Source of the DNA: Escherichia coli
Lineage (GTDB): Bacteria > Pseudomonadota > Gammaproteobacteria > Enterobacterales > Enterobacteriaceae
Assembly (NCBI RefSeq): GCF_003334765.1
Contig: NZ_QOWT01000016.1
DNA length: 64,000 nt
Strand: one strand, 5' to 3'
The notes beneath the pieces were generated by a model. It was not told the origin of the DNA. It was given only the letters and a program-made list of their open reading frames with translations, and made no database searches. The translations under genes were made by a program, and so were the position numbers. Shown in pieces: positions 7,524 to 48,819 of the stretch. Positions within the stretch are counted from its first letter, which is position 1. Every line of letters begins with the position of its first letter.

Positions 7524-7529
7524 TAAAGT

Positions 7530-7650
<121 letters not shown>

Positions 7651-8433: not shown

Positions 8434-8446
8434 CCATTCCTTCTTT

Positions 8447-9411: not shown

Positions 9412-9576
9412 AAGAAAACTCCTTTCGAATCAGGAGGCCATTGTAACGGAATACGTGCAGTTGCGGCGCTGATATTGCAGAAATGAGTGTGGTATAGTCA
9501 CCTTGCGAAACAGAGTTTATCTTCGTAGGCTTAGACTTGCATCCACGGTTAAGTCAGAGTGCTGACAGGAGGGCAT

Positions 9577-9777
9577 GTGGAAAAATATTGTGAGTTAATA
9601 CGCAAGCGGTACGCGGAAATCGCCAGCGGAGACTTAGGATACGTTCCGGACGCGCTGGGCTGCGTTTTGAAAGTGCTGAATGAAATGGCTGCCGACGACG
9701 CCCTTTCTGAGGCTGTCAGGGAAAAAGCAGCATACGCTGCGGCAAACTTACTGGTGAGCGATTATGTCAATGAATGA
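9577..9777 (+). CDS. yaeP: small protein YaeP (UPF0253 family)
   Basis: 66-aa product [19 protein letters not shown] from a GTG start preceded by SD-like AGGAGGG; the ORF-track start at 9559 is an upstream GTG. Confidence 0.8.
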
Positions 9778-10024
9778 TACGTATCAACCAATCAATTGTG
9801 ATGATTACGATAATCTTGAGCTCGCCTGCCAGCATCATTTAATGCTGACACTTGAGCTGAAAGATGGCGAAAAATTGCAGGCAAAAGCCAGTGATTTAGT
9901 CTCCCGCAAAAATGTGGAGTACCTGGTCGTCGAGGCCGCTGGCGAAACCCGCGAGCTGCGTCTGGATAAAATTACCAGCTTTAGCCACCCGGAAATCGGT
10001 ACGGTGGTGGTAAGCGAATCCTGA
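9770..10024 (+). CDS. rof: Rho-binding antiterminator Rof (YaeO)
   Basis: 84-aa product [21 protein letters not shown]; an in-frame ATG at 9764 is an alternative start; overlaps the yaeP 3' end. Confidence 0.9.
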
Positions 10025-10072
10025 TTGACTTTCGCCGGATGCGACGTTTGATGCGTCTTATCCGGCTTTCAC

Positions 10073-11371
10073 TTAACTAAGCGTTTTCTGCCAGACAAAA
10101 CTTACGCCATTCTCACCTTCAGCCACACCTTCTTGCGTCACAAATACCCCTGCCGCCGCAATCAGCGTTTCGCCATAAAACAGCAGTGGCGTGGTGTCAC
10201 GTAGCCACGGCGGCACGCCCAGCTCTTGCCAGATTTTCTTTAGCTTACGTCCGCCGTTACGCCCGACAATATGCAGCAATCCTGGCGCTTTGAAACGCAC
10301 GCTGACCGCTTCGTCTGCACGCGGAGGGCGAATATCGCCTCCCGCATTAAGCTGTACACTTCCCAGCCCCGCCGGTAATTCCAGCGGTTGAAGCCACGTC
10401 TGCCACGGCACAATGTTTTCGCTTTGCCCGGTGACGGATTTAATCCACCACAGTTGCGACTGATAGCGTCGGATTTCAAACGCGCCCAAACGTAAACAGG
10501 GTGAGGCATCTTCCCGCGCCAGCGCCACTTCCTGCCAGATCCTCACCAACGCGTCGCGGGAAGGCATCGGTGCATTCTGCCCTGCCAGCCAGCGGCGGAT
10601 AATCGCCGCGCGGCGGGCATCACTCATCGCCAGCATTGGCACAATCTGCAGCGTCCCCTGCGGCGATTGACAGTGTGCTAAATCATCTGCCAGCAGTTCA
10701 TCCAGCAGGCTCTCTTGTTCAGCACAAAGTGCGGCGCTGCGGGCCGTTGCTTCGGCAAAATGCGGCCAACGCTGCTGCAATAACGGCACTACGCGCAGGC
10801 GCAGAAAGTTACGATCGTATGAGTCGTCCTGATTACTTTCGTCTTCAATCCAGCGTAAATCATACTGACGCGCCCACTGCACCAGTTCCCCCCGCGTGCG
10901 GGCGAGCAACGGGCGAATAAGCCGCGTTCCGGCAAACTCCGAGACTTCCGCCATAGCCGAAAGCCCGGCAGGGCCACTGCCGCGTTTTAGCGCCAGCAGA
11001 AAGGTTTCACATTGATCGTCGAGATGTTGCGCGGTGACCAGCACTTCACCGGGCAACAAGGTGCGGGCAAATGCCTGATAACGTGCCTGCCGCGCCTGGG
11101 CCTCAATGCCCAGTCCTTCTTGCGCAAGTTGTACGCGTTCGACCACCAGCGGCACCTGCCACTGTTGGCAGACGTTTTCGCAATGCGTAACCCAGGCATC
11201 GGCATTGGCACTTAAACCGTGATGCACATGAATAGCGCGCAGAGCGACACCCGGATTTTCCGTCCGCCACTGCACCAACTGATGCAGCAGAACGGTGGAG
11301 TCAAGCCCGCCGCTAAAGGCCACCAGAATCTGGCGTGAGGTGAGAAGTTGTCTATTGAGCGTGAGTGTCAT
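10073..11371 (-). CDS. tilS: tRNA(Ile)-lysidine synthetase
   Basis: 432-aa ORF with PP-loop motif SGGLDS ([13 protein letters not shown]); recognised TilS. Confidence 0.95.
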
Positions 11372-11435
11372 GATGGTGCGATTTTACAGTAGCAATGCCC
11401 GGCACGTTACCGGGCAAATGCGGCGATGACAAGCC

Positions 11436-11825
11436 TTACTGCTCATACAGTTCCAACGGCAGCCCGTCCGGATCGTTAAAGAAGGTGAAGCGTTTTTGCG
11501 TGTATGGATCGACACGGATGGTTTCACACTTCACGTTATGGCTTTCAAGGTGCGCCACTGCCGCATCGATGTCATCAACGCTAAAAGCCAGATGACGCAG
11601 ACCGCAAGCTTCCGGTCGGCTGGGTCGTTCCGGCGGGAACGGAAATGAGAAAAGCTCAATCACATATTGCCCATTAAGCGCCAAATCCCCTTTCCATGAG
11701 TCGCGCGCTTCGCGATAGACTTCGCTTTGCAGCGTGAAACCAAGAATATCGCAGTAGAAAGCTGTGCTCACCGCATAATCCGTCGCAATAATCGCAATAT
11801 GGTGAACCTGTTTTAAACCCAGCAT
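11436..11825 (-). CDS. yaeR: VOC/glyoxalase-fold protein YaeR
   Basis: 129-aa product from the ATG preceded by AAGGAG (MLGLKQVHHIAIIATDYAVS); the ORF-track start at 11852 is further upstream. Confidence 0.85.
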   Translation of the reverse strand: MLGLKQVHHIAIIATDYAVSTAFYCDILGFTLQSEVYREARDSWKGDLALNGQYVIELFSFPFPPERPSRPEACGLRHLAFSVDDIDAAVAHLESHNVKCETIRVDPYTQKRFTFFNDPDGLPLELYEQ

Positions 11826-11881
11826 AACGTCTCCTTTATTTGTTAACAGCACGTTACTCGCCCGGAAGCCGCTCTGGCAAG

Positions 11882-14023
11882 TTATCCCGCCATTTTTAGG
11901 ACTCGTACGCGGTAAACGCCGTCTTCGTCCTGTTTCGCGCCGTGAATATCCGTTTCAAAACCGGGGTAATGTTGCCCGACGGAACAAAGCATCAGTAGAA
12001 AATCGAGTACTGTGCGGCTCTCTTTGGTCAGCATTTCTCCAGGCATCAACAGCGGTACGCCCGGTGGATAAGGCAGGATCATATTTGCCGATACTCTACC
12101 GACCAGTTGTTCCAGCGCAATGGTTTCTACTTCGCCTTTAATTTGTCGTTGCCATGCCTGATGTGGCGTCATGATCATCTCCGGCAAAGTATCGAATGCC
12201 CGCAACATCAAACCGGGAAGATCGTGTTTACGAATCAGCTTATGGATCCCTTGTGCCAGATCCTGAATACGCATATTGCGGTAGAAATCGGGATCTTCTG
12301 CATAGAGATCGGGTAGCATATTTTTGATCCGCAGGTTGAGATCGTAAGAGCGTTTGAATTCCGTCAACCCACGCAATAATCCCATTGCTTTGGTTTTATC
12401 GATGCCAATACTAAAGAGAAACAGCAGGTTATAAGGGCCGGTTTTCTCTACTACGATCCCACGTTCGTCGAGGAATTTTGCTACCAGCGCCGCCGGGATC
12501 CCCTCCTCGCTCATATTGCCCTGCTCGTCCATCCCCGGTGTCAAAATAGTGACTTTAACCGGATCGAGAAACATATGATCGGCATCCGCATCGTTAAAGC
12601 CGTGCCACTGTTCGCCAGGCGCAACGGGCCAGCATTCGGCTTCATCCACCTGCGGCGGTTGCCAGATATCGAAAAACCAACCGTCAGACTCTTCCCGCAG
12701 CCGCTGGACCTCTTTGCGAAAATGCAGAGCTCGTTCTACTGAACGGTTAATCAGCCGTTTGCCCGGATTACCACGCAGCATCGCCGCCGCCGTCTCAACC
12801 GAAGCAACAATGGGATAACTGGGCGAGGTGGTGGTATGCATCATAAAGGCTTCGTTAAAGGCCTCTTCGTCATACTCGCCTTTAATGTGGATCAGCGAAG
12901 CCTGCGATAACGCCGCCAGCATTTTGTGGGTCGATTGCGTTTCGAAGATCACTTTTCCCGCAACACGCTCGCCGCTCATACCACTTTTACCCTGGTAGAT
13001 CGGATGAAAATGGGTGTACGGCACCCAGGCAGAATCGAAGTGAATCGACGGGACATCCAGCGTCTGTTTGATCCAGTCGGTGTTGTAGAGCAAGCCATCA
13101 TAGGTGGAGTTGGTGATCACCGCATGAACCGGCCATTGTGCTTGCGTGGTAGCAGCGACTTTCTCTTCGATGCTGTCGCGAGTAAATTCACGGCGCGGGA
13201 TCCCACCAAGAATCCCCAACGCATTACGCGTCGGTTTCAGCCAGACTGGCACTACATCGTTCATCATCAACAGATGCGCCAGCGATTTATGACAATTGCG
13301 GTCGATCAACAGCGTACTGCCGGATGGCGCGGCGTACATACCCACAATTTTGTTCGACGTCGATGTTCCGTTGGTAACGATATAACTCTGTTCCGCGCCA
13401 AAAGTCCGCGCGATGTACTCTTCCGCTTCCAGGTGTGGCCCGGTGTGGTCGAGCAACGAACCAAGCTCGGTGACCGAAATAGAGACATCAGCCTTAAGAG
13501 TATTCCCGCCGAAAAAATCATAAAACAGACAGCCAACCGGGCTTTTTTGATATGCGGTGCCGCCCATATGCCCCGGCGTACAAAAGGTGTACTTCCGCTC
13601 TTTGACGTAGGTAAACAAGGCTTTCGTGAACGGCGGTGTAATGTTATCAAGATATTCGTCGGTGTACTGACGCATACGAATGGCGATATCTTCCGCCTGC
13701 CCCAGCGCATATTCAAAAAACCAGAGCGCCATCCGCATATCCTGCACGCTGACATCCATCGTCGAGTGGGTGTTGATGAAGGCATAAAGCGGGAGATATT
13801 CATTAAGCTGATTGATATCGCTACATAAATCGAGACTGTACTCATCCCAGTCAAAAATCACGCCGCAAATTCGAGGGTTATGTTCGATAAATTTCAGCAA
13901 ATCAACGCTGTTTTGTGGCCAGATAATCTGAAAGCCTTGCGCCACCAGCGCCGACTCCAGTTCTTTGATGGGCTCATCTTTATAAAAGACGCCATGCGGT
14001 CCCATAATGGCAATGATGTTCAT
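11882..14023 (-). CDS. ldcC: lysine decarboxylase 2 (constitutive), PLP-dependent
   Basis: 713-aa ORF; recognised LdcC sequence with the PLP-lysine region (STHK). Confidence 0.95.
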   Translation of the reverse strand: MNIIAIMGPHGVFYKDEPIKELESALVAQGFQIIWPQNSVDLLKFIEHNPRICGVIFDWDEYSLDLCSDINQLNEYLPLYAFINTHSTMDVSVQDMRMALWFFEYALGQAEDIAIRMRQYTDEYLDNITPPFTKALFTYVKERKYTFCTPGHMGGTAYQKSPVGCLFYDFFGGNTLKADVSISVTELGSLLDHTGPHLEAEEYIARTFGAEQSYIVTNGTSTSNKIVGMYAAPSGSTLLIDRNCHKSLAHLLMMNDVVPVWLKPTRNALGILGGIPRREFTRDSIEEKVAATTQAQWPVHAVITNSTYDGLLYNTDWIKQTLDVPSIHFDSAWVPYTHFHPIYQGKSGMSGERVAGKVIFETQSTHKMLAALSQASLIHIKGEYDEEAFNEAFMMHTTTSPSYPIVASVETAAAMLRGNPGKRLINRSVERALHFRKEVQRLREESDGWFFDIWQPPQVDEAECWPVAPGEQWHGFNDADADHMFLDPVKVTILTPGMDEQGNMSEEGIPAALVAKFLDERGIVVEKTGPYNLLFLFSIGIDKTKAMGLLRGLTEFKRSYDLNLRIKNMLPDLYAEDPDFYRNMRIQDLAQGIHKLIRKHDLPGLMLRAFDTLPEMIMTPHQAWQRQIKGEVETIALEQLVGRVSANMILPYPPGVPLLMPGEMLTKESRTVLDFLLMLCSVGQHYPGFETDIHGAKQDEDGVYRVRVLKMAG

Positions 14024-14077
14024 GTGTTCCTCCTGGAAAATCCTTCCTTAATCATAGCCTGCTCAAACCGTGGCGAT

Positions 14078-14102
14078 AAAAAAGGGCCACCGAAGTGACC
14101 CT
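14078..14102 (-). terminator. Rho-independent terminator downstream of accA
   Basis: Minus strand hairpin agggtcacTTCGgtggccct followed by TTTTTTT. Confidence 0.7.
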
Positions 14103-14121
14103 TTTTCAGAACTTTTGCGAA

Positions 14122-15081
14122 TTACGCGTAACCGTAGCTCATCAGGCGCTGATAACGACGATTTTTTAAATCTTCAGTGCTTAACACGTCGAGATCGGCC
14201 AGATCCGCCAGCAGTTGCGCTTTCAACGATGCCGCCATCGCTTCCGGGTTACGGTGAGCACCACCCAGTGGTTCCGGGATGATGGAGTCGATCAGTTTCA
14301 GTTCTTTCAGACGCGGAGCAATGATACCCATCGCTTCAGCCGCCAGCGGCGCTTTGTCGGCGCTCTTCCACAGAATGGACGCACAACCTTCCGGCGAGAT
14401 AACGGAATAGGTGCTGTATTGCAGCATATTCACTTTATCGCCCACGCCAATCGCCAGCGCACCGCCAGAACCACCTTCACCGATAACCGTACAAACTACC
14501 GGTACGCCGAGGCGAGACATTTCACGCAGGTTGCGTGCAATGGCTTCAGACTGACCACGCTCTTCTGCGCCCACGCCAGGATAAGCCCCCGGGGTGTCGA
14601 TAAAGGTGATGATAGGCATCTTAAAGCGTTCAGCCATTTGCATCAGACGCAGTGCTTTGCGGTAACCTTCTGGCGCTGGCATACCAAAGTTACGGCGAAT
14701 TTTTTCTTTGGTTTCACGACCTTTTTGATGACCAATGATCATCACCGGACGACCATCGAGACGGGCGATACCACCGACGATAGCTTTATCGTCTGCATAC
14801 GCGCGGTCGCCAGCCAGTTCGTCAAATTCATCAAATGCCAGGCGAACGTAATCCAGGGTATAAGGACGCTGTGGATGGCGTGCCAGTTGCGCAATCTGCC
14901 ATGCACCGAGATCGGCGAAGATTTTACGTGTCAGTTCTACGCTTTTTTCACGCAGACGATGCACTTCTTCATCGATGTTAATATCCAGTTTCTCATCCTG
15001 ACGGCTAACCGCAGTCAGAGAATCGATTTTCGCTTCCAGCTCTGCAATCGGCTGTTCAAAATCAAGGAAATTCAGACTCAT
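14122..15081 (-). CDS. accA: acetyl-CoA carboxylase carboxyltransferase alpha subunit
   Basis: 319-aa ORF starting [22 protein letters not shown]; recognised AccA. Confidence 0.95.
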
Positions 15082-15093
15082 AGTATTCCTGTA

Positions 15094-18000
15094 TTAGTCA
15101 AACTCCAGTTCCACCTGCTCCGAACCAATGAGGCCACGGAGATCGTTTAATAAACGATCGCTCGGAGAGACACGCCACGTCGCGCCAAAACGCAACCGCG
15201 CGCGTGCATCCGCCCTCTGATAGTAGAGATGTACTGGAATTGTCCCAGAGCGGTGGGGTTCCAGAGACTGACGGAGTCGGTTTAAAAGCTGGTCATCAAT
15301 TTGCCTGTCCGTCAGCGAGATAGCAAGCCCGCGAGCATATTTTTCCCGGGCTTCGTCAATATCCATCACTTCGCGAGCGGTCATTTTAAGCCCACCGCTG
15401 AAGTCATCAAAGCTGACCTGTCCGCTGACGATAAGTATGCGGTCTTTTTCCAGCAATTGCTGGTATTTATCCAGGGCGTCAGTAAACAACATCACTTCCA
15501 GCCGCCCGGAACGGTCATCCAGCGTGCAGATACCGATACGATTGCCGCGCTTGGTGACCATAACCCGCGCGGCAACAACGAGCCCCGCAGCCGTGATGAC
15601 TTTACCACGTTCTGTCGGGTGCATGTCTTTCAGCCTTACGCCTCCGACATAACGCTCAATCTCTTTTAAATACTGGTTGATAGGGTGTCCGGTCAGGTAC
15701 AGGCCTAACGTTTCACGTTCCCCATCTAATACCACCTGCTCCGGCCACGGTTGGCAGCTGGCGTAGGATTGTTCAATTTGTTCCGGCTCTTCGGCCAGCA
15801 CGCCGAACATATCGGCCTGACCGATAGCTTCCGCTTTCGCGTGTTGATCTGCCGCTTTTAACGCATCGCCCAGCGAGTTCATCAGCGCTGCGCGATGTGG
15901 CCCAAGACGGTCAAACGCCCCGGACATGATCAGTTTTTCCAGCACGCGACGGTTCAACTTTTTGGTGTCGGTACGGGCGCAGAGATCAAACAGTTCGCGG
16001 AAGTAGCCGCCTTTATTACGGGCTTCGATGATGGCCTCAATCGGACCTTCACCGACCCCTTTGATCGCGCCAATACCATACACGATTTCGCCGTCGTCGT
16101 TGACGTGGAAATGGTAAAGACCGGAGTTTATATCTGGTGGCAGGATTTTCAGCCCCATCCGCCAGCACTCATCCACCAGACCCACCACCTTCTCGGTGTT
16201 GTCCATATCGGCGGTCATTACCGCCGCCATAAACTCCGCAGGATAGTGCGCTTTCAGCCATAACGTTTGATATGACACCAAAGCATAGGCCGCAGAGTGC
16301 GATTTGTTAAATCCGTAACCAGCGAATTTCTCCACCAGGTCGAAGATTTTCATCGCCAGTTCAGCGTTGATTCCGTTCTTTTCTGCACCTTCAGCAAATA
16401 CAGAACGTTGCTTAGCCATCTCTTCCGGCTTTTTCTTACCCATCGCACGACGCAGCATATCCGCGCCACCGAGGGTATAACCAGAAAGCACCTGCGCAAT
16501 CTGCATGACCTGTTCCTGATACAGGATAATGCCGTAGGTTGGCTCCAGTACCGGTTTCAGGCTTTCATGCTGCCACTGTACGTCCGGATAGGAGATCTCT
16601 TCACGACCATGTTTACGGTCGATAAAGTTATCCACCATCCCTGATTGCAACGGACCGGGGCGGAACAGTGCCACTAGGGCGATCATATCTTCGAAGCAGT
16701 CAGGTTGTAGACGCTTGATCAGGTCCTTCATGCCGCGCGATTCAAGCTGGAATACCGCCGTGGTTTCCGAGCGTTGCAGCATGTCGAAGCTTTTCTTATC
16801 ATCCAGCGGGATCGCAGCGATATCCAGCGGCGGCTCGCCATTCTTCGCCCGCCGCTTGTTGATCATCTCCAGCGCCCAGTTGATGATGGTGAGCGTACGC
16901 AAACCAAGGAAGTCGAACTTCACCAGTCCGGCGTATTCAACGTCGCTTTTATCAAACTGGGTGACCGGATGTTTGCCCTCTTCATCGCAGTAAAGCGGCG
17001 CAAAATCGGTAATTTTGGTCGGCGCGATAACCACCCCACCGGCGTGCTTACCGGCGTTACGGGTGACCCCTTCCAGTTTGCGCGCCATGTCGATCAGCGC
17101 CTTAACTTCTTCATCCGCTTCGTAGATTTCCGGCAGCTGCGGCTCGGCTTCAAACGCTTTCGCCAGCGTCATCCCCGGATCGGGCGGGATCAGTTTCGAG
17201 ATACGATCGACAAAGCCGTACGGATGCCCCAGCACGCGGCCTACGTCGCGGATCACCGCTTTCGCCGCCATTGTACCGAAGGTGATGATCTGCGATACCG
17301 CATCACGACCGTACATGTCCGCTACGTGCTCGATAACCTGATCGCGTTTCTCCATACAGAAGTCAACGTCGAAGTCAGGCATGGAGACACGTTCCGGGTT
17401 AAGGAAACGTTCGAACAGCAGGTCAAATTCCAGCGGATCGAGGTCGGTGATTTTCAGCGCGTAGGCCACCAGTGAACCCGCACCGGAGCCACGGCCTGGC
17501 CCTACCGGTACGCCGTTATCTTTCGACCACTGGATAAATTCCATAACGATGAGGAAGTAGCCCGGGAAGCCCATCTGGTTGATAACCTGAAGTTCAGTCT
17601 CCAGACGTTCGTCATATTCCGGGCGGCGCTTAAGACGTTCTTCCTCATCAGGGAATAAAAAGGCCAGACGCTCTTCCAGGCCCTCTTTTGCACGCTTGAC
17701 CAGATAATCTTCGGTGCTCATGTCCCCGGTCGGGAACTGCGGCAGGAAGTATTCACCAAGACGCACGGTTACGTTACAGCGTTTGGCGATCTCAACGGTG
17801 TTGGCAAGGGCTTCGGGGATGTCGGCAAACAGCTCACACATCTCCTCTTCGCTACGCATATATTGCTGCGGCGAATAGTTACGCGGGCGTTTAGGATCGT
17901 CGAGGGTAAAGCCGTCGTGGATCGCGACGCGGATTTCGTGTGCGTCAAAGTCGCTGCTGTCGATAAAGCGCACGTCGTTGGTCGCCACGACGGGCAAACC

Positions 18001-18576
18001 GCGCGCTTCCGCCAGTTCCACCGCCGCGTGCAGATAGCTTTCTTCATCCGGCCTGCCGGTGCGGATCAGCTCGAGAAAATAGCGATCCGGGAAGTGTTCT
18101 TCATAAAACGCGACACACTCATCTACCAGCGCGCTGTTACCACGCAAAAGACTGCGTCCGACGTCGCCCATGCGTCCGCCGGAAAGAAGGATCAACCCTT
18201 CGTTTAATTCGATAAGCCAGTCGCGATCGATGATCGGCCCGGCGGCACCGTACCCGCGCTGATACGCTTTTGAGATCAGCAACGTCAGATTCTGATAGCC
18301 GGTATTGTTCGCCGCCAGTACCGTCAGGTGGGTTAACTCATCACCCAGCAGGTCGCACTGGACGTTAAAATCTGCCCCGACGATAGGCTTAATCCCTGCG
18401 CCATGTCCCGCTCCGTAGAACTTCACCAGACCACAAAGGTTGGTGAAATCGGTGATCGCCAGTGCTGGCATACCCAACGCCGCCGCCTTTTTTACCAACG
18501 GTGCGGTTTTGGCCAGGCCATCGATCATCGAGTAGTCGCTGTGCACCCGCAGGTGTACGAAACGTGGTTCAGACAT
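15094..18576 (-). CDS. dnaE: DNA polymerase III alpha subunit
   Basis: 1160-aa ORF with PHP domain N-terminus ([21 protein letters not shown]); recognised DnaE. Confidence 0.97.
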
Positions 18577-18612
18577 CTTCAGATTCCGGTTTACTTAATC
18601 TCGACACAAGAA

Positions 18613-19209
18613 TCAGGACGCAAGTCCCAGTGCGCGTTTGACAGGCCCAAAGCTGCGCCGATGGTGTTCGGTCGCGCCGTGTTCAGCCAGTTTTTCCAGA
18701 TGAAAAGCGGTTGGGTACCCTTTGTGTTGGGCAAAACCATATTGCGGGAAAACAATATCCAGCGCCGCCATTTCGGCGTCACGCGTCACTTTCGCCAGGA
18801 TAGACGCGGCACTGATTTCCGGTACGCGGCTATCGCCTTTCACCACAGCCATCGCAGGCATCGGTAATTTCGGGCAGCGGTTACCATCAATCAACACATA
18901 TTCCGGCGCAATATGCAGCCCAGCGACGGCACGCTGCATCGCCAGCATGGTCGCATGAAGAATGTTCAGCTCGTCGATTTCGTGGGGTTCCGCGCGGCCC
19001 AGACTCCAGCTCAACGCTTTCTCTTTGATCTCTTCATAGAGCGCCAGACGGCGTTTTTCGCTCAGCTTTTTGGAATCATTCAGCCCGGCAATCGGGCGCG
19101 CCGGGTCAAGGATCACCGCAGCGGTGACGACCGCGCCAACTAACGGCCCGCGTCCGACTTCATCCACACCCGCAACCAGCTGCGTGTGCGGATAAACAAA
19201 TTCGATCAT
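18613..19209 (-). CDS. rnhB: ribonuclease HII
   Basis: 198-aa ORF starting [23 protein letters not shown]; 4-nt overlap with the lpxB stop. Confidence 0.95.
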
Positions 19210-20354
19210 TGTGCTAACTCCAGAACGGCTTGTGCCGCCTGCTCATCGGCATTGCAGCGGATCTGCTGATGCAGTTCACGGAAGGTATCGTGCATCGCGT
19301 GGCTGGTTTTCCCGTTCGCCAACAGCGGTAACAGCGCCGCAGCCAGTTTTTGCGGCTCACACTCTTCCTGCAATAATTCTTTGACTAACTCTCTGCCCGC
19401 CAGCAGATTTGGCAGCGAGACATAATCAGTTTTCACCAGCCGCTTCGCCAACCAGAAGGTAAAAGGCTTCATGCGATATCCCACCACCATCGGGCATTTC
19501 GCCAGCATACACTCCAGGGCTGCCGTACCCGACGCCAGTAGCGCCGCATCGCTGGCGACCATCGCCTCACGGCCCATCCCATCCAGCAAATGAACTGAAA
19601 GGTCTGGCGCGACTTCAGCTTTGATGCGTTCAAACTGCTCGCGGCGTTTGGCATTCACCAGTGGCACCACGATTTCGAGATCCGGATATGTCTGGCGCAA
19701 AAGCTGGGCCGTTTTCAGGAAATCGGCACTAAGCATTTCAACTTCTGCACCACGGCTCCCCGGTAGCAACGCCAGGCAGTGGGCATCGTGAGGGATCCCC
19801 AGCACATCACGGGCGGCATTTTTATCTGGATCTAATGGCATGGCATCAGCCATGGTATGACCGATAAAGCGGCACGGTACGTTGTATTTGTCATAAAACG
19901 CTTTTTCGAAAGGCAGAAATGCGAGCACCAGATCGGTGGCTCTGCCTATTTTGAAAACACGTTTCTGTCGCCACGCCCAGACTGACGGACTGACGTAATG
20001 AATGGTTTTGATACCCTGCTTTTTGAGGTTACCTTCAAGAGTAATATTGAAGTCAGGCGCATCAATACCAACAAAAACATCTGGCTTCAGTTCGCCAAAA
20101 CGCTTTGTCAGATCGGCACGAATATGCAGTAAGCGACGCAGACGACCGAGCACTTCAACAATGCCCATCACCGCCAGTTCTTCCATTTCGTACCAGGCTT
20201 CGCAGCCTTCAGCCTGCATTCGTGGCCCGGCAACACCAACAAAGCGGGCGTTGGGCACATGTTCTTTCAGAGCGCGGATTAAACCGGCCCCCAGGATATC
20301 GCCGGAGGTTTCTCCGGCGACCAGGGCAATCGTTAATGGACGCTGTTCAGTCAT
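19206..20354 (-). CDS. lpxB: lipid-A-disaccharide synthase
   Basis: 382-aa ORF; recognised LpxB; lies within the lipid A cluster. Confidence 0.95.
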
Positions 20355-21142
20355 TAACGAATCAGACCGCGCGTTGAGCGTGCAAAGAAATCGGTAAAGG
20401 CTTTCACTTCCGGATATGTTTCCGCCAGTTCAGCAATTTCCGGTTTCACTTCATCGAGCGTTTTACCGCTACGATAAATCAGCTTATACGCATTGCGGAT
20501 AGCGGTAATCGCCTCACGGCTGAATCCGCGGCGCTTCAGCCCTTCGATATTGACACCGAACGGCGTTGCGTGGTTACCCTGCGCAATGACATAAGGAGGG
20601 ACGTCCTGCGCCACACCGGAGCAGCCGCCAACCATCACGTGCGCACCAATGATGCAGAACTGATGGACTGCGGTCATGCCGCCGATGATCGCGAAGTCGT
20701 CAACCGATACGTGACCCGCCAGCGTTGCGTTGTTGGCGAGAATACAGCGGTTACCTACCGTACAATCGTGCGCAATGTGCGCGTTGATCATCAGTAAGTT
20801 GTCGCTGCCCACCTTCGTCAATCCACCGCCCTGGACTGTGCCACGATGAATGGTGACGCTTTCGCGAATGCGGTTACGATCGCCGATTTCCACACGGGTC
20901 GGTTCGCCAGCATATTTCAGATCCTGGTTAACTTCGCCGATGGAGGCGAACTGATAAATCTCATTATCGCGGCCAATTTTAGTATGACCATTCACGACAA
21001 CGTGAGATTTCAGTACGGTACCCTCACCAATTTCGACATGGGGTCCAACGATACAAAAAGGACCAATGTGTGCGTTCGCGCCAATTGACGCGCCCTCTTC
21101 CACAATGGCGGTTGGATGCACAAAGGCGGATTTATCAATCAC
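20354..21142 (-). CDS. lpxA: UDP-N-acetylglucosamine acyltransferase
   Basis: 262-aa ORF with hexapeptide repeats (left-handed beta-helix); recognised LpxA. Confidence 0.95.
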
Positions 21143-21145
21143 GTA

Positions 21146-21601
21146 TCAGGCCTCCCGGCTACGAGCACACATCATCGTTGCTTCGCAAACTACTTTACCA
21201 TCGACCAGAGCAACCCCTTTAAAACGGGTCAGGCCGCGGCGCGTTTTTTCGAAAGTGACTTCCATGATCATTTGATCGCCAGGCACGACCGGGCGCTTGA
21301 AGCGCGCTTCGTCAATACCAGCGAAGTAGTACAGCTCACCCGGTTCCAGTTTTCCTACGCTTTTAAACGCCAGAATACCTGTTGCCTGTGCCATTGCTTC
21401 CAGAATCAGCACACCCGGGAAAATCGGTTTTCCAGGGAAATGGCCCTGGAAGAATGGCTCATTGACAGAGACATTTTTTACTGCGCGCAGAAAACGACCT
21501 TCTTCAAAATCCAGCACGCGATCCACCAGTAAGAACGGGAAACGGTGCGGCAGAAGTTCTAAAATCTCTTCAATCTGCAGAGTATGAGTGTTAGTAGTCA
21601 A
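21146..21601 (-). CDS. fabZ: 3-hydroxyacyl-ACP dehydratase FabZ
   Basis: 151-aa product from a TTG start ([28 protein letters not shown]); the ORF-track upstream extension was not used. Confidence 0.9.
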
Positions 21602-21705
21602 GATACTCTTCCTGTCAAAATATAAGAAACGACAATAATAACACGGCCTGCCGCAATCGTAAGAATGAGACAGGCCGTAAAGTTTGGCGAACAAAAGATG
21701 GAACG

Positions 21706-22731
21706 TTAGTCTTGTTGATTAACCTTGCGCTCAAGCGATTTCAGACGCTTGCTCATGTCATCAATGTTCATCACCAGTGCAGCGGTTTTGCGCCAGACTT
21801 TGTTGGGTTGCAGCGGAATGCCTGAGGAATAGACGCCTGGTTCAGTGATGGGACGCATCACCATACCCATGCCCGTAACCGTCACTTTGTCGCATATTTC
21901 CATATGCCCGTTGATTACGCTGGCTCCGCCGATCATGCAGTAACGACCAATTTTCAGGCTGCCCGCCATAATGACGCCACCGGCAACCGCCGTATTGTCG
22001 CCAATCACGACGTTATGTGCAATCTGGCACTGGTTATCAATGATCACGCCATTGCCAATAATAGTGTCATCCAGCGCGCCGCGATCGATGGTTGTGCAGG
22101 CACCGATCTCCACGCGATCGCCAATAATTACGCGACCAATCTGTGGGATCTTCACCCAGTTACCACGATCGTTGGCATAACCAAAGCCGTCTGCGCCTAC
22201 CACTGTTCCGGACTGGATCAGGCAATTCTGACCGATCTGGATCTCATGGTAAATGGTTACGTTCGCCCAGAGACGCGAACCTGCACCGATTTTGCTGTTT
22301 TTACCTACGAAGCAACCGGCACCGATAATCACGTTATCGCCCAGTTCAACGCCGGACTCAATCACCGCGTTAGCGCCAATCGATACGTTGTTACCCAGCT
22401 TCGCCGTCGCGTCGATCACCGCACTGGGTGCAATGTTCTGCGCGGGCTGCGGCGTGGTATCTAAAATTTGCGCCATGCGCGCGTAAGTCAGGTAGGGATT
22501 CTTCACTACCAGTGCGGCACTTTTCGCGAAAGGAAGATCGTCCTGGGTCATGACAACCGCGGACGCCTGGCACAAGCCTAAATGCTCACGGTATTTTGGG
22601 TTAACCATGAACGTAATGTGACCTGTTTGTGCAGATTGCATGGACGCAACGCCGGTGATGACGATATCGCCATCACCGTGTAGTTCTGCATCCAACTGCT
22701 GCGCTAAATCAGCCAGTCGAATTGAAGGCAT
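21706..22731 (-). CDS. lpxD: UDP-3-O-(3-hydroxymyristoyl)glucosamine N-acyltransferase
   Basis: 341-aa ORF with hexapeptide repeats; recognised LpxD. Confidence 0.95.
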
Positions 22732-22734
22732 TAC

Positions 22735-40081: not shown

Positions 40082-41239
40082 CTACCGCTCTTCATCCAGT
40101 TGTAACGCCACATACAGCAGCAACCTGTCATCAAAATTGCCCAAATCAAGCCCGGTCAGTTCCGATATACGATTAAGCCGATACTCCAGGGTATTACGAT
40201 GAATAAACAACGCCTTTGACGTTGCCAGCGGTTGCACATTGTGGCGAAACCACGCCGCCAGCGTTCGTCGCAGCAAGCCGTTATTGTCCATCGTTTTCAG
40301 CCGCGCCAGCGGTCGCGCCAGTTCGTTGGCCTGCCAGTCGCCACGCAAACTGTCGAGTAACACAGGTAACATCAGATCCTGATAAAAATAGCAGCGACTT
40401 TCTGGCATCCGCTGTTTACCCACCACCATCGTCGTTTTCGCCGTACGATAGGATCGGGCAATACTGCCAGGACCGGTAAAATAGTTGCCCAGTGAAACGC
40501 GAAAACGCAGCTGGCCGTACTCTTTCATGCGGGTAATCAGTTGTTCAACTCGCTTACGATGATCTTCTGCATCCCAGCGCCCAAAAGAGTTCAACGCCGG
40601 TTTCAACACCACCATTTCGGTTAGCGAGACAATCGCCACCAGATTATTACGCTCGGGCGTAGTCAGCGCGTTTTGCAGTTGTTGTAACTCCGCCATTGCG
40701 CTGTCCACGCCAAGCTGACCGCTGTCGACCTCAACAATAGCCACCACTCGCGGTTGATTGAGATCGATCCCCAGCCGTTGCGCCCATTCAGTAAGTGCGG
40801 GAGTATTCTCCTCTGCCTGAATCAGGTTCATCACCAGTTCTTCCCGCAAACGGCTATCCTGCGCCAACAAGTGCATCAACCGCGACTGTTCCAGCATCAT
40901 TTCAGCCGTCATGCAGACCAGTTCGCCATATTTACGCAGATTCTCTGGTTCACCTGTCAGGCCAATTACGCCGACAATTTCACCTTCCAGCCGTAACGGT
41001 AGATTAATCCCCTGCCGCACACCGTGCAGATGACGTGCTACCGCGTCATCGATATCGACGACTCGTCCCTGTGAAAGTACCAGCAATGCACCTTCGTGCA
41101 ATTCACCAATACGCTCACGATCGCCGCTGCCGATAATTCGCCCACGGGCATCCATTACGTTGATATTGGTATCGATGATGCGCATGGTACGTGCCACGAT
41201 ATCCTGCGCCATTTTGGTATCAAGATGCCAGCCAGCCAT
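40082..41239 (-). CDS. cdaR: carbohydrate diacid regulator CdaR (SdaR)
   Basis: 385-aa product from the ATG preceded by GGAGGA (MAGWHLDTKMAQDIV); C-terminal PucR-type HTH; the ORF-track GTG start is 6 codons upstream. Confidence 0.9.
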   Translation of the reverse strand: MAGWHLDTKMAQDIVARTMRIIDTNINVMDARGRIIGSGDRERIGELHEGALLVLSQGRVVDIDDAVARHLHGVRQGINLPLRLEGEIVGVIGLTGEPENLRKYGELVCMTAEMMLEQSRLMHLLAQDSRLREELVMNLIQAEENTPALTEWAQRLGIDLNQPRVVAIVEVDSGQLGVDSAMAELQQLQNALTTPERNNLVAIVSLTEMVVLKPALNSFGRWDAEDHRKRVEQLITRMKEYGQLRFRVSLGNYFTGPGSIARSYRTAKTTMVVGKQRMPESRCYFYQDLMLPVLLDSLRGDWQANELARPLARLKTMDNNGLLRRTLAAWFRHNVQPLATSKALFIHRNTLEYRLNRISELTGLDLGNFDDRLLLYVALQLDEER

Positions 41240-41393
41240 AAGTCCTCCGTTATGCACGGCTTAGCATAAGGAAGTACGTAACGTACGGCATTGTGCAAAT
41301 GCCTAAAGGATGATGAAGATGTATGGAGTTGTGGTGAAGTTCACAGATTGTAAGGAGAACCCCTTCCCGTTTTCAGGAAGGGGTTGAGGGAGA

Positions 41394-42818
41394 TTACTGC
41401 ATTAACAGGTAGATGGTGCTGTCGCCGCGCTGAATGTTGAGTGCCAGCACAGACGGTTTGCTGTCGAGAACTTTACGCAGTTCAGCGATGTTTTTCACTG
41501 CCTGCTGGTTCGCGCCAATAATCACATCACCTTTCTTCAGGCCGATCTGCGCAGCCGGAGTGCCCGTTTTCACGTTGTTCACTACCACGCCCTGATCTTT
41601 GCCTTTGTTGCTCATCTCAGCGCCTTCAATGCCGTTGAAGATGGAGCTGGAATCAACCTGATTCTGGCTGCTCTGCTGCAGTTCCAGGTTCACGTTAACC
41701 TGCTTACCGTCGCGCAGTAAGCCCAGGGTCAGTTTGCTGCCTACCGGCATAGTACCCACCTGAGCACGCAGTGCGGCAAAGCTGCTGATCGGCTTACCGT
41801 TCAGTGAGGTGATCACATCACCCGCTTTAATGCCCGCTTTTGCAGCGGAGGAATTAGGCAGAACCTGGCTTACGAAAGCACCGCGCTGGGCGTCAACTTT
41901 CATCGCTTTCGCCAGTTCGGAGTTCAGCTCAGTCCCCATAATACCCAGCTCACCGCGTTTCACCTGGCCGTATTCCACCATCTGCGAGGTCAGGTTTTTC
42001 ACCATGTTACTCGGGATAGCAAAACCGATACCGATGTTGCCGCCGTCCGGTGCGAGGATCGCGGTGTTGATACCGATCAGTTCGCCGTTCAGGTTAACCA
42101 GCGCACCACCGGAGTTACCACGGTTGATCGCTGCATCGGTCTGGATGAAGTTTTCGTAGTTTTCGGCATTCAGGCCGCTACGCCCCAGCGCAGAGACAAT
42201 CCCGGAAGTTACCGTCTCGCCCAGACCAAACGGGTTACCAATCGCTACGGTGTAATCACCCACGCGCAGTGCATCAGAATCCGCCATCTTAATTGCGGTC
42301 AGGTTTTTCGGGTTCTGGATTTGGATCAGCGCGATATCAGAGCGCGGATCTTTGCCAACCATCTTCGCGTCGAACTTACGGCCATCGCTCAGTTGAACTT
42401 TAATGACCGTCGCGTTATCAACAACGTGGTTGTTGGTGACGACATAGCCTTTATCGGCATCAATGATGACGCCGGAACCCAGCGCCATGAATTTCTGTTG
42501 CTGGCCGCCACCATTACCGCCCTGGCCACCCTGGCAGAACGGAGAGCTCTGGAACGGAGAACCTTCCTGGCAGAACGGAGAATCATCACCGAAGAACTGC
42601 TGGAAATTACGCGGCATACGCGGCGTATTAACGGTTGTGCTACCTTCTACGTTAATGCTGACCACTGAAGGCATCACCTTTTCGAGCATCGGTGCAAGGC
42701 TTGGCATCTGCTGGGCTGTCGTTGCTGAAGAAGTCTCAGCCGCCGTTGCAGAGAGCGGAGATAACGCCAAACCTAAACTCAGAGCCAGTGCACTCAGTGC
42801 TAATGTGGTTTTTTTCAT
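41394..42818 (-). CDS. degP: periplasmic serine endoprotease/chaperone DegP (HtrA)
   Basis: 474-aa ORF with signal peptide, trypsin-like catalytic Ser (GNSGGAL) and two PDZ domains; recognised DegP. Confidence 0.97.
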   Translation of the reverse strand: MKKTTLALSALALSLGLALSPLSATAAETSSATTAQQMPSLAPMLEKVMPSVVSINVEGSTTVNTPRMPRNFQQFFGDDSPFCQEGSPFQSSPFCQGGQGGNGGGQQQKFMALGSGVIIDADKGYVVTNNHVVDNATVIKVQLSDGRKFDAKMVGKDPRSDIALIQIQNPKNLTAIKMADSDALRVGDYTVAIGNPFGLGETVTSGIVSALGRSGLNAENYENFIQTDAAINRGNSGGALVNLNGELIGINTAILAPDGGNIGIGFAIPSNMVKNLTSQMVEYGQVKRGELGIMGTELNSELAKAMKVDAQRGAFVSQVLPNSSAAKAGIKAGDVITSLNGKPISSFAALRAQVGTMPVGSKLTLGLLRDGKQVNVNLELQQSSQNQVDSSSIFNGIEGAEMSNKGKDQGVVVNNVKTGTPAAQIGLKKGDVIIGANQQAVKNIAELRKVLDSKPSVLALNIQRGDSTIYLLMQ

Positions 42819-42864
42819 GTATTTCAGTCTCGATTAACAGATAACGCAAAATTGCTGTGTTCTT

Positions 42865-42891
42865 CAGATTCGTTTTATAGCCTGAAGTTCC
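42865..42891 (-). promoter_or_regulatory. degPp: sigma-E type promoter upstream of degP (-35 GGAACTT, -10 TCTGA)
   Basis: Minus strand reads tcGGAACTTcaggctataaaacgaaTCTGAagaac about 50 bp upstream of the degP start; matches the sigma-E consensus. Confidence 0.75.
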
Positions 42892-42947
42892 GAACTAAAG
42901 TTTCTGCAAAAGGTAAAAATTTATTGTTCGTCTTTACAAAAGCCTGG

Positions 42948-44465
42948 TTATTGTTCTACGGCCATCAGACGTCGGTATTCATCCCACGCATAGAGGTCGG
43001 TCATACCGCTGATATAATCCTGCAGCAGGCGGCAACGGTAATAATATTCCCATAGCGGAAACTCAGGAGAATCTGACGGTAATTTACTGACAGCCTCGAC
43101 ATAGGCCAGCCGATGGCGCGTCGAGAGTTTGTGGAATAAGCGCGATTCAATAGGGAAACGTTTCACCCGTTCTTTTTCTACCAGTTCAGTAAAGTCTGAT
43201 AACGACAGGCTTAATAAAGGACGATAAATCTCTAATAATCCGCTAATGACCCGATAGCCCTGCAATTCAAGCTGCTCGACATCTGGATGGCTAAACACAT
43301 GTTTTACAGCGACATTTTTATATAGCTTAAGAAGATCGCTGCATTCGCTGGCATCTTCCAATAATGCATGATTAAACGTTCCGGCGAAAATCGCAGGCAG
43401 ATTATCAATAAATCGTTGTGCCGCGTAGGGTACCAGTTTATTTAGGGTGTTTACCCGTAAATACATAAAAAACTGATCTTCCGTACTGCGGCTTAAACTA
43501 TTTGAGCGTGATTTTTCCCAGGCATTTTCAACCACCAGCGAAAAGAGCGAACCTTTCTCATGCTGGCCCCACGCTTCGTGCAAATGATGATAAAGCTGCT
43601 CAACGGTAAATATTCTTTTCTCTACCGCATCTTCAAGGTCTGCCACACAATAGGAGATGTCGTCGGCAGCTTCCATAATCCACGTTAATGGAAAACGACT
43701 GTAAAGCGCCAAATTAAGTTCTTTACGCAACCGGGCAATATAGGCTTCTTCAGAAAGATAATAACCCGGCTTTTTCATTAAATAGTGATGTGTCTCAGGC
43801 GTTTCGCCACGCCACCACGCCGGACGGGTATATTTTAAAATACCGCCAACCTGTGCCCAGGTGAGATTCATCCGCATCAATGTATGCACCAGGCGAATGC
43901 CTTGTGCATTCCCCTCAAAATGACATAAGTCCTGACGAATCTTGCGCCGCAGCTCGTTAAGCGGTTCTTCCCCGTCCCGTAAACGTAGTGCCGCCACGCT
44001 GCAGCGATCGTCAGTCAGAGGCTGGCTTTCGGCATCTTCCGGGTGCAAACGTTGGCGAAACCAGTCATTTATCGCCGCTTCGCCAAAATGACCAAACGGC
44101 GGATTGCCGATATCGTGCATCAGGCATGACATCTCAACAATGCTTTCAAAGGGACCGGTCAGTTCATCCAGGCCGTATGCTTCCAGTAATTTAAGCTCTT
44201 TCAGACGGCTTAAAATTTCTTTGGCGATGTAGCGCCCCACCTGCTGGACTTCCATCGAGTGGGTAAGACGCGTGCGCACGGCGGCATTGCGCTCCAGTGG
44301 AAAAACCTGGGTCTTTTGTTGCAGACGACGAATTGCCGGAGAGTTGATGATACGCCCGCGATCGCTCTCGAAGATCCGCAGGATCTCATGTTCGGTTTTA
44401 ACGCCCTGCGGTGAACGGTAACGACGATGCCAGTTTATTTTTTTTCGGAAATCAATCTGTGCCAT
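42948..44465 (-). CDS. dgt: dGTP triphosphohydrolase
   Basis: 505-aa ORF with HD domain; recognised Dgt. Confidence 0.95.
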
Positions 44466-44548
44466 GTCCTCTCCCGCGTGAGAAATACGCTTCCCCGTAA
44501 GCGCATGGTAAACTATGCCTTCAAATCGGGCTTATCGCGAGTAAATCT

Positions 44549-45247
44549 ATGAAAATCGGCATCATTGGTGCAATGGAAGAAGAAGTTACGCTGCTGCGTG
44601 ACAAAATCGAAAACCGTCAAACTATCAGTCTCGGCGGTTGCGAAATCTATACCGGCCAACTGAATGGAACCGAGGTTGCGCTTCTGAAATCGGGCATCGG
44701 TAAAGTCGCTGCGGCGCTGGGTGCCACTTTGCTGTTGGAACACTGCAAGCCAGATGTGATTATTAACACCGGTTCTGCCGGTGGCCTGGCACCAACGTTG
44801 AAAGTGGGCGATATCGTTGTCTCGGACGAAGCACGTTATCACGACGCGGATGTCACGGCATTTGGTTATGAATACGGTCAGTTACCAGGCTGTCCGGCAG
44901 GCTTTAAAGCTGACGATAAACTGATCGCTGCCGCTGAGGCCTGCATTGCCGAACTGAATCTTAACGCTGTACGTGGCCTGATTGTTAGCGGCGACGCTTT
45001 CATCAACGGTTCTGTTGGTCTGGCGAAAATCCGCCACAACTTCCCACAGGCCATTGCTGTAGAGATGGAAGCGACGGCAATCGCCCATGTCTGCCACAAT
45101 TTCAACGTCCCGTTTGTTGTCGTACGCGCCATCTCCGACGTGGCCGATCAACAGTCTCATCTTAGCTTCGATGAGTTCCTGGCTGTTGCCGCTAAACAGT
45201 CCAGCCTGATGGTTGAGTCACTGGTGCAGAAACTTGCACATGGCTAA
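44549..45247 (+). CDS. mtnN: 5'-methylthioadenosine/S-adenosylhomocysteine nucleosidase
   Basis: 232-aa ORF starting [24 protein letters not shown]; recognised Mtn/Pfs. Confidence 0.95.
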
Positions 45248-46040
45248 GTCACTGTTCAGGGCGCTGGTCGCCCTGTCTTTTCTTGCGCCACTGTGGCTCA
45301 ACGCCGCGCCGCGCGTCATCACGCTTTCTCCCGCCAACACTGAACTTGCCTTTGCCGCCGGGATCACGCCGGTTGGGGTCAGCAGCTATTCCGACTATCC
45401 TCCACAAGCGCAAAAGATTGAGCAGGTTTCCACCTGGCAGGGGATGAATCTGGAACGCATTGTCGCGCTGAAACCCGATCTGGTGATTGCCTGGCGTGGA
45501 GGTAATGCCGAGCGGCAGGTTGACCAGCTGGCTTCGCTGGGAATAAAAGTGATGTGGGTCGATGCGACAAGCATTGAACAAATTGCCAATGCGTTACGTC
45601 AACTGGCCCCCTGGAGTCCGCAACCAGACAAGGCCGAACAAGCCGCGCAATCCCTGCTGGATCAGTACGCGCAATTGAAAGCGCAATATGCTGATAAACC
45701 TAAAAAACGTGTTTTTCTGCAATTCGGCATTAATCCGCCATTTACCAGTGGAAAAGAGTCGATTCAGAACCAGGTACTCGAAGTTTGTGGCGGAGAAAAC
45801 ATCTTTAAAGACAGCCGGGTTCCCTGGCCGCAAGTTAGCCGCGAACAGGTGTTAGCACGCTCGCCACAGGCGATTGTCATTACAGGCGGACCGGACCAAA
45901 TTCCTAAAATCAAACAATACTGGGGTGAACAGCTCAAAATTCCCGTTATTCCTCTCACGAGTGACTGGTTTGAACGTGCAAGCCCACGTATTATCCTCGC
46001 TGCACAACAGCTCTGTAATGCGCTTTCACAGGTAGATTAG
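45240..46040 (+). CDS. btuF: vitamin B12 periplasmic binding protein
   Basis: 266-aa product starting [22 protein letters not shown]; overlaps the mtn 3' end by 8 nt; the ORF-track start is 9 codons upstream. Confidence 0.9.
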
Positions 46041-46077
46041 CGCCTGACCTTTTCAGGTGCTCAGTGGGGATTGAACA

Positions 46078-46701
46078 ATGCTCGTCTATTGGCTGGATAT
46101 AGTCGGCACAGCGGTATTTGCCATCTCCGGCGTTTTGTTAGCCGGAAAATTGCGTATGGACCCTTTTGGTGTTCTGGTACTGGGCGTGGTAACCGCAGTA
46201 GGCGGCGGGACAATTCGCGACATGGCGCTGGATCACGGCCCGGTATTTTGGGTGAAAGATCCCACCGATCTGGTCGTTGCAATGGTCACCAGCATGCTGA
46301 CCATCGTGCTGGTGCGCCAGCCAAGACGCTTACCAAAATGGATGTTGCCGGTGCTGGACGCCGTTGGTCTGGCGGTGTTTGTCGGCATTGGCGTGAATAA
46401 AGCCTTTAATGCGGAAGCCGGTCCGTTAATCGCGGTTTGTATGGGCGTCATTACTGGCGTTGGCGGCGGGATCATTCGTGATGTTCTGGCCCGCGAAATC
46501 CCCATGATTTTACGTACAGAAATCTACGCAACTGCCTGTATTATCGGCGGTATTGTCCACGCTACGGCTTATTACACATTTTCCGTACCACTGGAAACAG
46601 CCAGTATGATGGGCATGGTCGTGACGCTATTGATTCGGCTGGCGGCTATTCGTTGGCATCTTAAGCTACCGACGTTTGCGCTGGATGAGAATGGGCGTTG
46701 A
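46078..46701 (+). CDS. yadS: UPF0126 inner-membrane protein YadS
   Basis: 207-aa hydrophobic ORF with an internally duplicated glycine-rich motif (VGGGTIRDMAL / GVGGGIIRDVLA). Confidence 0.9.
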   Translation: MLVYWLDIVGTAVFAISGVLLAGKLRMDPFGVLVLGVVTAVGGGTIRDMALDHGPVFWVKDPTDLVVAMVTSMLTIVLVRQPRRLPKWMLPVLDAVGLAVFVGIGVNKAFNAEAGPLIAVCMGVITGVGGGIIRDVLAREIPMILRTEIYATACIIGGIVHATAYYTFSVPLETASMMGMVVTLLIRLAAIRWHLKLPTFALDENGR

Positions 46702-46747
46702 AGAGAGAAGATGTGCCGGATAGTTTATCCGGCACATGAACAACAGA

Positions 46748-47092
46748 TTAGATACTAAAGGAAGAACCGCAACCGCAGGTGCTTTTCGCGTTCGGGTTGG
46801 TCACGATGAAACGAGAACCTTCCAGACCTTCGGTATAATCAACGGAACCGCCGACCAGATATTGCAGGCTCATCGGATCAACCACCAGGCCAACGCCCTG
46901 TTTTTCGATGGTCATATCGCCTTCGTTCACCTGATCATCAAAGGTGAAACCATACTGGAAGCCGCTGCAACCGCCACCGGTGATATACACGCGTAATTTC
47001 AGATTCGGGTTATCTTCGTCAGCGATCAGGCTTTTAACTTTGTTGGCTGCTGCGTCGGTAAACTCCAGCGGCAGTGCTACGTCATCACTCAT
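46748..47092 (-). CDS. erpA: iron-sulfur cluster insertion protein ErpA (A-type carrier)
   Basis: 114-aa product [19 protein letters not shown] with C-terminal CGCGSSF motif; the ORF-track start is 11 codons upstream. Confidence 0.95.
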
Positions 47093-47173
47093 ATTTTGCT
47101 CCAAACGACATCGGCAATTGGGCAAATTCTAACCCAATAATAATCGCCATTATCTAATACCCTGGTATTTCGT

Positions 47174-48613
<1,440 letters not shown>

Positions 48614-48819
48614 TCATACAAATAAGATGACGGCATTTTACTCGCACGTTCCATGAAAATCCTTTGCAAAGCGTAATGTTTCAAATGCACAAAACTTTTA
48701 TACTCTAAGAAATCAGGATTGCACCAGTACAAGCAGCCTGATGTTTGACGAGTATTTAACTTGTTATGAATAACATAGAATAGCAGCCATTCACTTTTTC
48801 TACGAATCAGGAACCCTCC

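Follow-up and report, generated by a model that had tools for sequence, protein, structure and literature searches.

The degP (htrA) control region of an Escherichia coli genome close to K-12: a known sigma-E promoter with CpxR input, minor starts and a fourU leader

Introduction

What controls the expression of degP (htrA) in Escherichia coli, and how much of that control can be located in the short gap between degP and its upstream neighbour dgt? The question was raised by a stretch of 64,000 nucleotides, referred to here as the window, for which a preliminary description made from the sequence had proposed an envelope-stress promoter in front of degP. The gene is under the control of both sigma-E and the Cpx system (PMC3306311). 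With regard to Cpx, the induction of degP was 26.6-fold in cpxA24; with pNlpE it reached 32.4-fold, and 6.4-fold in a delta-cpxR background (PMC9600279). With regard to sigma-E, DegP is counted among the core members of the regulon by Rhodius et al. (PMC1312014). According to the same paper, sigma-E promoters consist of a GGAACTT element and a TCAAA element separated by a spacer of preferably 16 nt (range 15-19), followed by a discriminator of 5 or 6 nt. The preferred distance from GGAACTT to the first transcribed base is 26 or 27 nt, with a range of 25-28 (PMC1312014). That degP depends on sigma-E and Cpx, and which sequences are its CpxR boxes, is taken from the literature, by way of secondary citation.

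The analysis described below indicates that the interval 42819-42947 is almost certainly the known degP (htrA) control region, with a sigma-E promoter, CpxR input, a fourU leader and minor transcription starts. In other words, the degP promoter region is already known, it was correctly interpreted in the preliminary description, and nothing about it is new. Its value lies mainly in serving as a control, as a classical sigma-E promoter, among the founding ones, was recognised from the sequence alone. What is added here is the exact anatomy of the region in window coordinates, its footprint across the order, a pair of minor starts, and the thermometer that the leader contains.

Results

The gap between the stop codon of dgt and the start codon of degP spans 42819..42947 exactly and is 129 nt long. 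The coordinates of the genes and control elements discussed below are collected in Table 1. A scan of 42500..43300 found no terminator-like site between the two genes. The window is 99.98% identical to E. coli K-12 MG1655 over 48.7 kb, where positions 1..48702 align gap-free with K-12 175000..223701 in reverse complement and differ from it at 8 of 48,702 bases. Because of this gap-free collinearity, a window position x equals 223702 minus the K-12 coordinate, and published K-12 positions can be read directly in the window. None of the 8 mismatches falls in the 211 nt that span the promoter region, which are 100% identical to K-12 MG1655. Furthermore, among 5,426 complete genomes of E. coli, all but one (5,425) contained a match to a 601-nt query bridging the dgt-degP gap, with dgt and degP annotated. 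As an aside on strain identity, 8 differences in 48,702 aligned bases with zero gaps indicate a very close relative of MG1655, not MG1655 itself.

The preliminary description had also placed NlpE, RseP, Skp and BamA in the same window as part of the same envelope-stress circuitry. All four genes were located there on the minus strand through the gap-free K-12 alignment. The window holds an additional envelope-stress component that had gone unlisted, namely rcsF, which encodes the Rcs envelope-stress sensor lipoprotein and lies at 3707..4111 on the plus strand.

Table 1. Genes and control elements of the degP region and related envelope-stress genes, in window coordinates.
Feature	Position	Strand	Description and basis
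degP (htrA) coding sequence	41394..42818	-	474 aa, N-terminus MKKTTLALSALALSLGLALSPLSATAAETSS; open reading frame and translation; annotation in K-12 and 5,425 E. coli genomes
dgt coding sequence	42948..44465	-	dGTPase; 505-aa open reading frame; upstream neighbour of degP
Main degP start (A)	42858 = K-12 180844	-	40-nt leader; three published TSS tables; equivalent to Salmonella htrA P3
Sigma-E -35 element GGAACTT	42885..42891	-	-33..-27 from +1 at 42858; 7/7 match to the GGAACTT motif of Rhodius et al. (PMC1312014)
Sigma-E -10 element TCTGA	42864..42868	-	-10..-6; 16 nt past GGAACTT
Second start (G of TCTGA)	42865 = K-12 180837	-	47-nt leader; Cho 2014 (PMC3923258); equivalent to Salmonella htrA P2
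Candidate -10 TATAAA for the 42865 start	42879..42874	-	within the sigma-E spacer; putative assignment
Weak upstream start, in dgt	43033 = K-12 180669	-	215-nt leader; Cappable-seq score 1.8 (PMC4782308); equivalent to Salmonella htrA P1
Candidate -10-like TATTAT for the 43033 start	43046..43041	-	-13..-8; putative assignment
CpxR box degP1, GTAAAGACGAACAAT	42923..42937	-	-79..-65; published known site from De Wulf 2002 (PMC9600279 Table S1)
Second GTAAA, inverted (TTTAC on the degP strand)	42913..42917	+	-59..-55, in an A/T-rich tract; putative CpxR binding
CpxR box degP2, GTAAATTACCGTCAG	43073..43087	-	in the 3' end of dgt, outside 42819..42947; -229..-215 from 42858 and -54..-40 from 43033 (PMC9600279 Table S1)
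HtrA 5'-UTR fourU RNA thermometer (Rfam RF02700)	42813..42858	-	leader and first two codons
nlpE	7723..8433	-	K-12 collinearity
skp	22735..23220	-	K-12 collinearity
bamA	23342..25774	-	K-12 collinearity
rseP	25804..27156	-	K-12 collinearity

The central element of the gap is GGAACTTCAGGCTATAAAACGAATCTGA (42891..42864, minus strand), which reads GGAACTT-N16-TCTGA, is oriented with degP, and sits upstream of this gene at a distance of 46 nt from its ATG (42818). The motif proposed in the preliminary description is therefore present on the minus strand upstream of degP; of the two spacer lengths that had been allowed, 15 and 16, the spacer is exactly 16 and not 15. GGAACTT-N14-18-TCTGA has a single match in the 64 kb, where 0.04 is expected, and one such match was found in 4 of 100 shuffles. 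When a perfect GGAACTT was required together with a spacer of N15-17 and the degenerate -10 TCNNA, the same site was the sole match in the window. A point against the sigma-E reading is that the -10 element of degP agrees with the regulon-wide TCAAA at only 3 of 5 positions. The other classical sigma-E promoter with TCTGA is rpoH P3. A sigma-E-like sequence with one mismatch, GGAACTA-N16-TCGAA, also occurs within rseP at 26683..26710 (minus strand), ~900 nt upstream of bamA, and the number of sequences of this kind in the window does not exceed chance.

Where does transcription from this promoter begin? Published data converge on the A at 42858. Cappable-seq mapped a degP start to K-12 180844 with a score of 41.6 (PMC4782308 supplement), the TSS table of Kim et al. 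2012 lists a degP start at 180844 (PMC3415461 supplement), and Cho et al. 2014 report the 180844 start under exponential and glutamine conditions with sigma 'E' (PMC3923258 supplement). The exponential-phase set of Cho 2014 came from an earlier study (PMC3923258), so that the three tables amount to two independent methods. The sigma 'E' column of Cho 2014 was initially considered as ChIP evidence and was dropped, because the paper states that its sigma-24 data are from RegulonDB, which holds a sigma-24 promoter entry at degP (PMC3923258). As the column was imported and not measured, it does not count as independent evidence.

The position of the start fits the motif. With the start at 42858, 5 nt separate TCTGA from +1 and 26 nt separate GGAACTT from +1. 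In other words, the start lies 6 nt past the last base of TCTGA, and the distance of about 7 bp named beforehand is borne out by all three tables. A spacer of 16, a discriminator of 5 and a -35 to +1 distance of 26 together make up the preferred sigma-E geometry as described in PMC1312014. The 5' end of the Rfam RF02700 match in the leader falls on the same base as the start. The reading of this site as the envelope-stress sigma-E promoter of degP is thus supported by the motif, the geometry of the start, the core membership of DegP in the regulon, and the sigma-24 entry in RegulonDB.

Further evidence comes from conservation across Enterobacterales. Loci were found by a DNA-pattern scan of species-representative genomes with the back-translated DegP peptide PMLEKVMPSVV, which yielded 120 Enterobacterales loci. 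Sufficient upstream sequence was available for 113 of these, and one locus per genus (36 genera) was used for the alignment. The composite pattern GTAAA-N14-17-TTAC-N20-27-[GT]GAACT[TA]-N15-17-TCNN[AT] was present in 109 of the 113 degP loci and in 2 of 22,600 shuffled sequences. The sigma-E spacer was 16 nt in 105 of the 109 loci, in which the distance from GTAAA to TTAC was 15-17 nt and the gap from TTAC to the -35 was 20-21 nt. The -10 element of these loci was TCTGA in 47, TCTCA in 30 and TCTTA in 26.

In the alignment of 36 genera, the only invariant or near-invariant columns were TGTAAA (42938..42933), A-TA (42924..42922), TTAC (42916..42913), GAACT (42890..42886) and TCT-A (42868..42864). 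TGTAAA, TTAC and GAACT were invariant in all 36 genera and TCT-A was kept in 33-35, while the sequence between the conserved blocks and the leader diverged. This footprint is independent evidence of function for both GTAAA elements and for the sigma-E hexamers. The T at the third position of the -10 (TCT-N-A) is kept in 33 of 36 genera and is thus a conserved departure from the regulon-wide TCAAA.

The GTAAA-like CpxR half-sites noted in the preliminary description are indeed found upstream of the sigma-E motif. One GTAAA lies at 42937..42933 (minus strand) and forms the start of the published box degP1, and another lies inverted at 42913..42917 (plus strand). A simple search for GTAAA-N5-GTAAA with 3 mismatches was too loose to be of use, as it gave 478 matches where 388 are expected, and for this reason a CpxR matrix was used instead. 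It was derived from 38 published sites, with those inside this window left out, and 127,972 positions were scored. The box degP2 scored 12.4 bits and ranked 9 of 127,972. The box degP1 scored 6.2 bits, at rank 145 of 127,972, against a training median of 14.0 bits. It reads GTAAA-GACGA-ACAAT; compared with the direct repeat GTAAA-N5-GTAAA, the first half-site is good and the second (ACAAT) is poor. Being weak by the matrix and having one good half-site, degP1 would not be picked out from the sequence of a single genome; it is singled out because it is conserved across genera. The GTAAA elements face each other as an inverted pair, GTAAA-N15-TTTAC, about two helical turns apart and invariant in the 36 genera, unlike the direct-repeat CpxR consensus.

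Two other sites in the window came up in the matrix scan. The published skp CpxR box GTAAAACCTGGTAAG at 23341..23355 (minus strand), at the extreme 3' end of bamA and upstream of skp, ranked fourth in the window. The best match in the window is GTAAATCTATGAAAA at 44541..44555 (plus strand), in the mtn-dgt intergenic region, with 17.0 bits. To our knowledge, no function of this CpxR-like site is known. The same site also appeared in a genome screen, at -76 of dgt (PMC9600279).

In addition to the main start, the published tables hold two minor starts for degP, one at the G of TCTGA and one within dgt. The former (180837) is represented by 28 reads, was seen in stationary phase only, and lies in a region with a sigma-38 ChIP-chip signal (Cho 2014, PMC3923258). 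It is absent from Cappable-seq (PMC4782308). A start at the same G of TCTG has been mapped in Klebsiella (PMC3415461). In Salmonella, htrA has three starts with leaders of 40, 47 and 215/449 nt, and the 215-nt leader begins within dgt. The preliminary description made no mention of these two additional starts or of the RNA thermometer in the leader.

Could the sigma-E motif be a chance match with no promoter function? Short motifs made of two blocks do arise by chance, and a relaxed scan, in which the -35 could carry 1 mismatch and any TCNNA was accepted as a -10, gave 9 matches in the window against 6.0 expected, which means that the relaxed scan adds nothing beyond the perfect site. The perfect motif, however, is unique in the window and stands in the correct orientation at a short distance from degP. 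The mapped start at the predicted distance from TCTGA and the retention of the motif across 36 genera amid diverging flanks contradict the chance reading, which is refuted by these two lines of evidence and has next to no probability left. A different doubt concerns the conserved block further upstream (TGTAAAG...AATA...TTTTTAC), which might serve the alpha subunit as an A/T-rich UP element, or be a site of another protein, either instead of a CpxR site or in addition to it. Rhodius et al. describe conserved A/T-rich elements in sigma-E promoters, near -48/-49 and near -57/-58 (PMC1312014), and the TTTTTAC tract of degP lies at -61..-55. The inverted arrangement of the two GTAAA elements ~15 nt apart, where the CpxR consensus is a direct repeat, and the low matrix score of the degP1 15-mer point the same way. 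However, what is invariant is precisely GTAAA and the complementary TTTAC, which goes beyond mere A/T richness, degP1 is catalogued among the known CpxR sites with De Wulf 2002 as the source (PMC9600279), and degP is strongly induced by Cpx, with lower induction in delta-cpxR (PMC9600279). These observations make a reading other than a CpxR site very unlikely.

If CpxR binds upstream of degP, through which promoter does it act? One proposal is that Cpx acts not on the sigma-E promoter but via interleaved promoters of the sigma-70/sigma-S type, such that degP1 and the inverted GTAAA serve the 42865 start and degP2 serves the 43033 start. Sigma-E and Cpx would then have separate but overlapping promoters. 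The restriction of the 180837 start to stationary phase, with its sigma-38 signal (PMC3923258), is consistent with this proposal, as are the Klebsiella start at the same G and the 47-nt leader in Salmonella. Furthermore, degP2 occupies -54..-40 of the 43033 start, a typical position for an activator, with TATTAT at -13..-8, and three positions of TATAAA (T, A, A) are kept in 30-31 of 36 genera. The counterevidence is that the 42865 start is missing from Cappable-seq and has few reads, and that the start at 43033 is very weak. Neither 42865 nor 43033 was found to have a -35-like hexamer, and the generic sigma-70 scan of 42500..43300 gave nothing on the degP strand. The A/T-rich spacer may itself belong to sigma-E recognition, as Rhodius et al. 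tie spacer conservation to the -10 (PMC1312014), and the assignment of CpxR to any particular degP start is putative. On balance, separate routing of Cpx is possible but unlikely. A fuller version of the proposal would give the E. coli region the same make-up as that of Salmonella, namely three interleaved promoters, with Cpx acting mainly via the sigma-E-independent starts at 42865, nested in the sigma-E spacer, and 43033, with degP2 at -47. Relatedly, GTAAA-N15/16-TTTAC would represent a head-to-head CpxR arrangement outside the direct-repeat consensus. This version is doubtful, and we give it little credence. Which promoter each CpxR box serves in E. coli is something that we infer, and the preferred reading continues to be a sigma-E promoter at 42858 with CpxR input from upstream.

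The transcript that starts at 42858 carries a leader resembling a known RNA thermometer. An Rfam scan of the window matched RF02700 over the whole model (positions 1-46 of 46) at 77 bits, above the gathering score of 52, with E = 1e-14. The UUUU stretch (42851..42848) is base-paired to the GAGA of the Shine-Dalgarno sequence (42831..42828); in both the Rfam alignment and the minimum-free-energy fold at 30-37 C, U8-U11 are paired with G28-A31 and C13 is bulged. In the E. coli leader, a C at 42827 replaces U at model position 32, which results in an A.C mismatch at the base of the stem. The predicted free energy at 37 C is -2.9 kcal/mol for the E. coli leader and -6.8 for the family consensus, so that the E. 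coli leader is predicted to be ~4 kcal/mol weaker. With the E. coli leader constrained to the fold of the family, the predicted energy went from -4.4 kcal/mol at 30 C to -1.8 at 42 C. At 30 C, the predicted pairing probability of the Shine-Dalgarno sequence is 0.3-0.6 in the E. coli leader, compared with 0.97 in the consensus. The hairpin of the E. coli leader was not more stable than shuffled sequence (z = 0.95), and thus folding energy alone lends the thermometer no support. In related sequences, changes at the base of the stem are not compensated, and the fourU:Shine-Dalgarno core is kept. In Salmonella, SHAPE showed the htrA thermometer to be closed at 30 C and open at 42 C, and it is functional in reporter assays (PMC5602114). 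By analogy, the E. coli leader may work as a thermometer like the Salmonella one.

The window contains further Rfam matches above the gathering score. These are the CssrA sRNA at 32908..33017 (minus strand) in the rpsB-tsf gap, the t44/tff RNA at 33856..33942 (minus strand) upstream of rpsB, and naRNA4 at 7568..7644 (minus strand) beside nlpE.

Discussion

The elements described above can be assembled into a model of degP control. Protein-folding stress at the outer membrane would free sigma-E from RseA, and sigma-E would then bring RNA polymerase to GGAACTT (42891..42885) and TCTGA (42868..42864), with sigma-E-directed transcription expected to begin at the A at 42858. Phosphorylated CpxR would bind the upstream GTAAA elements, namely degP1 (-79..-65), the inverted GTAAA (-59..-55), and degP2 (-229..-215, in dgt). 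Upon activation of the Cpx system, for example by NlpE, such binding would increase degP transcription. The starts at 42865 and 43033 may supply sigma-E-independent transcripts that would still bear the thermometer. The 40-nt leader, in turn, is predicted to form a short fourU hairpin, in which the Shine-Dalgarno sequence is partly hidden and which heat would open, giving a temperature input at the level of translation. It is established knowledge that at the degP region the pathways of sigma-E and Cpx converge on one quality-control protease, together with a putative temperature-sensing leader RNA.

How does this region compare with known systems? With the sigma-E promoters described in PMC1312014, the degP promoter shares a perfect -35, the 16-nt spacer, the 5-nt discriminator and the 26 nt from -35 to +1, as well as a purine start and an A/T-rich upstream region. 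It differs in its -10 element, which is TCTGA where the consensus of the class is TCAAA (PMC1312014). With CpxR-activated promoters such as cpxP, ppiA and spy, degP shares a GTAAA half-site less than 100 nt upstream of the start and strong induction by Cpx. In these promoters the box is GTAAA-N5-GTAAA, whereas the second GTAAA of degP is inverted and ~15 nt away and does not form a direct repeat with a 5-nt gap. In addition, the core promoter of degP is read by sigma-E and not by sigma-70.

The comparison with Salmonella htrA extends to both the starts and the leader. The E. coli TSS tables hold the same leader lengths of 40, 47 and 215 nt as the three-promoter region of Salmonella htrA (htrAp1-p3). 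The E. coli leader matches RF02700 over the full length of the model and shares the fourU:Shine-Dalgarno pairing and the bulged C with the Salmonella thermometer. It differs from the latter in its A.C mismatch and in being predicted to be weaker, and it was in Salmonella that the function was tested (PMC5602114). The closest comparison is with the degP promoter of E. coli K-12, with which the region in the window shares an identical sequence, the same mapped start at 180844, and the same published CpxR boxes. There is no difference between the two; the region in the window is that promoter.
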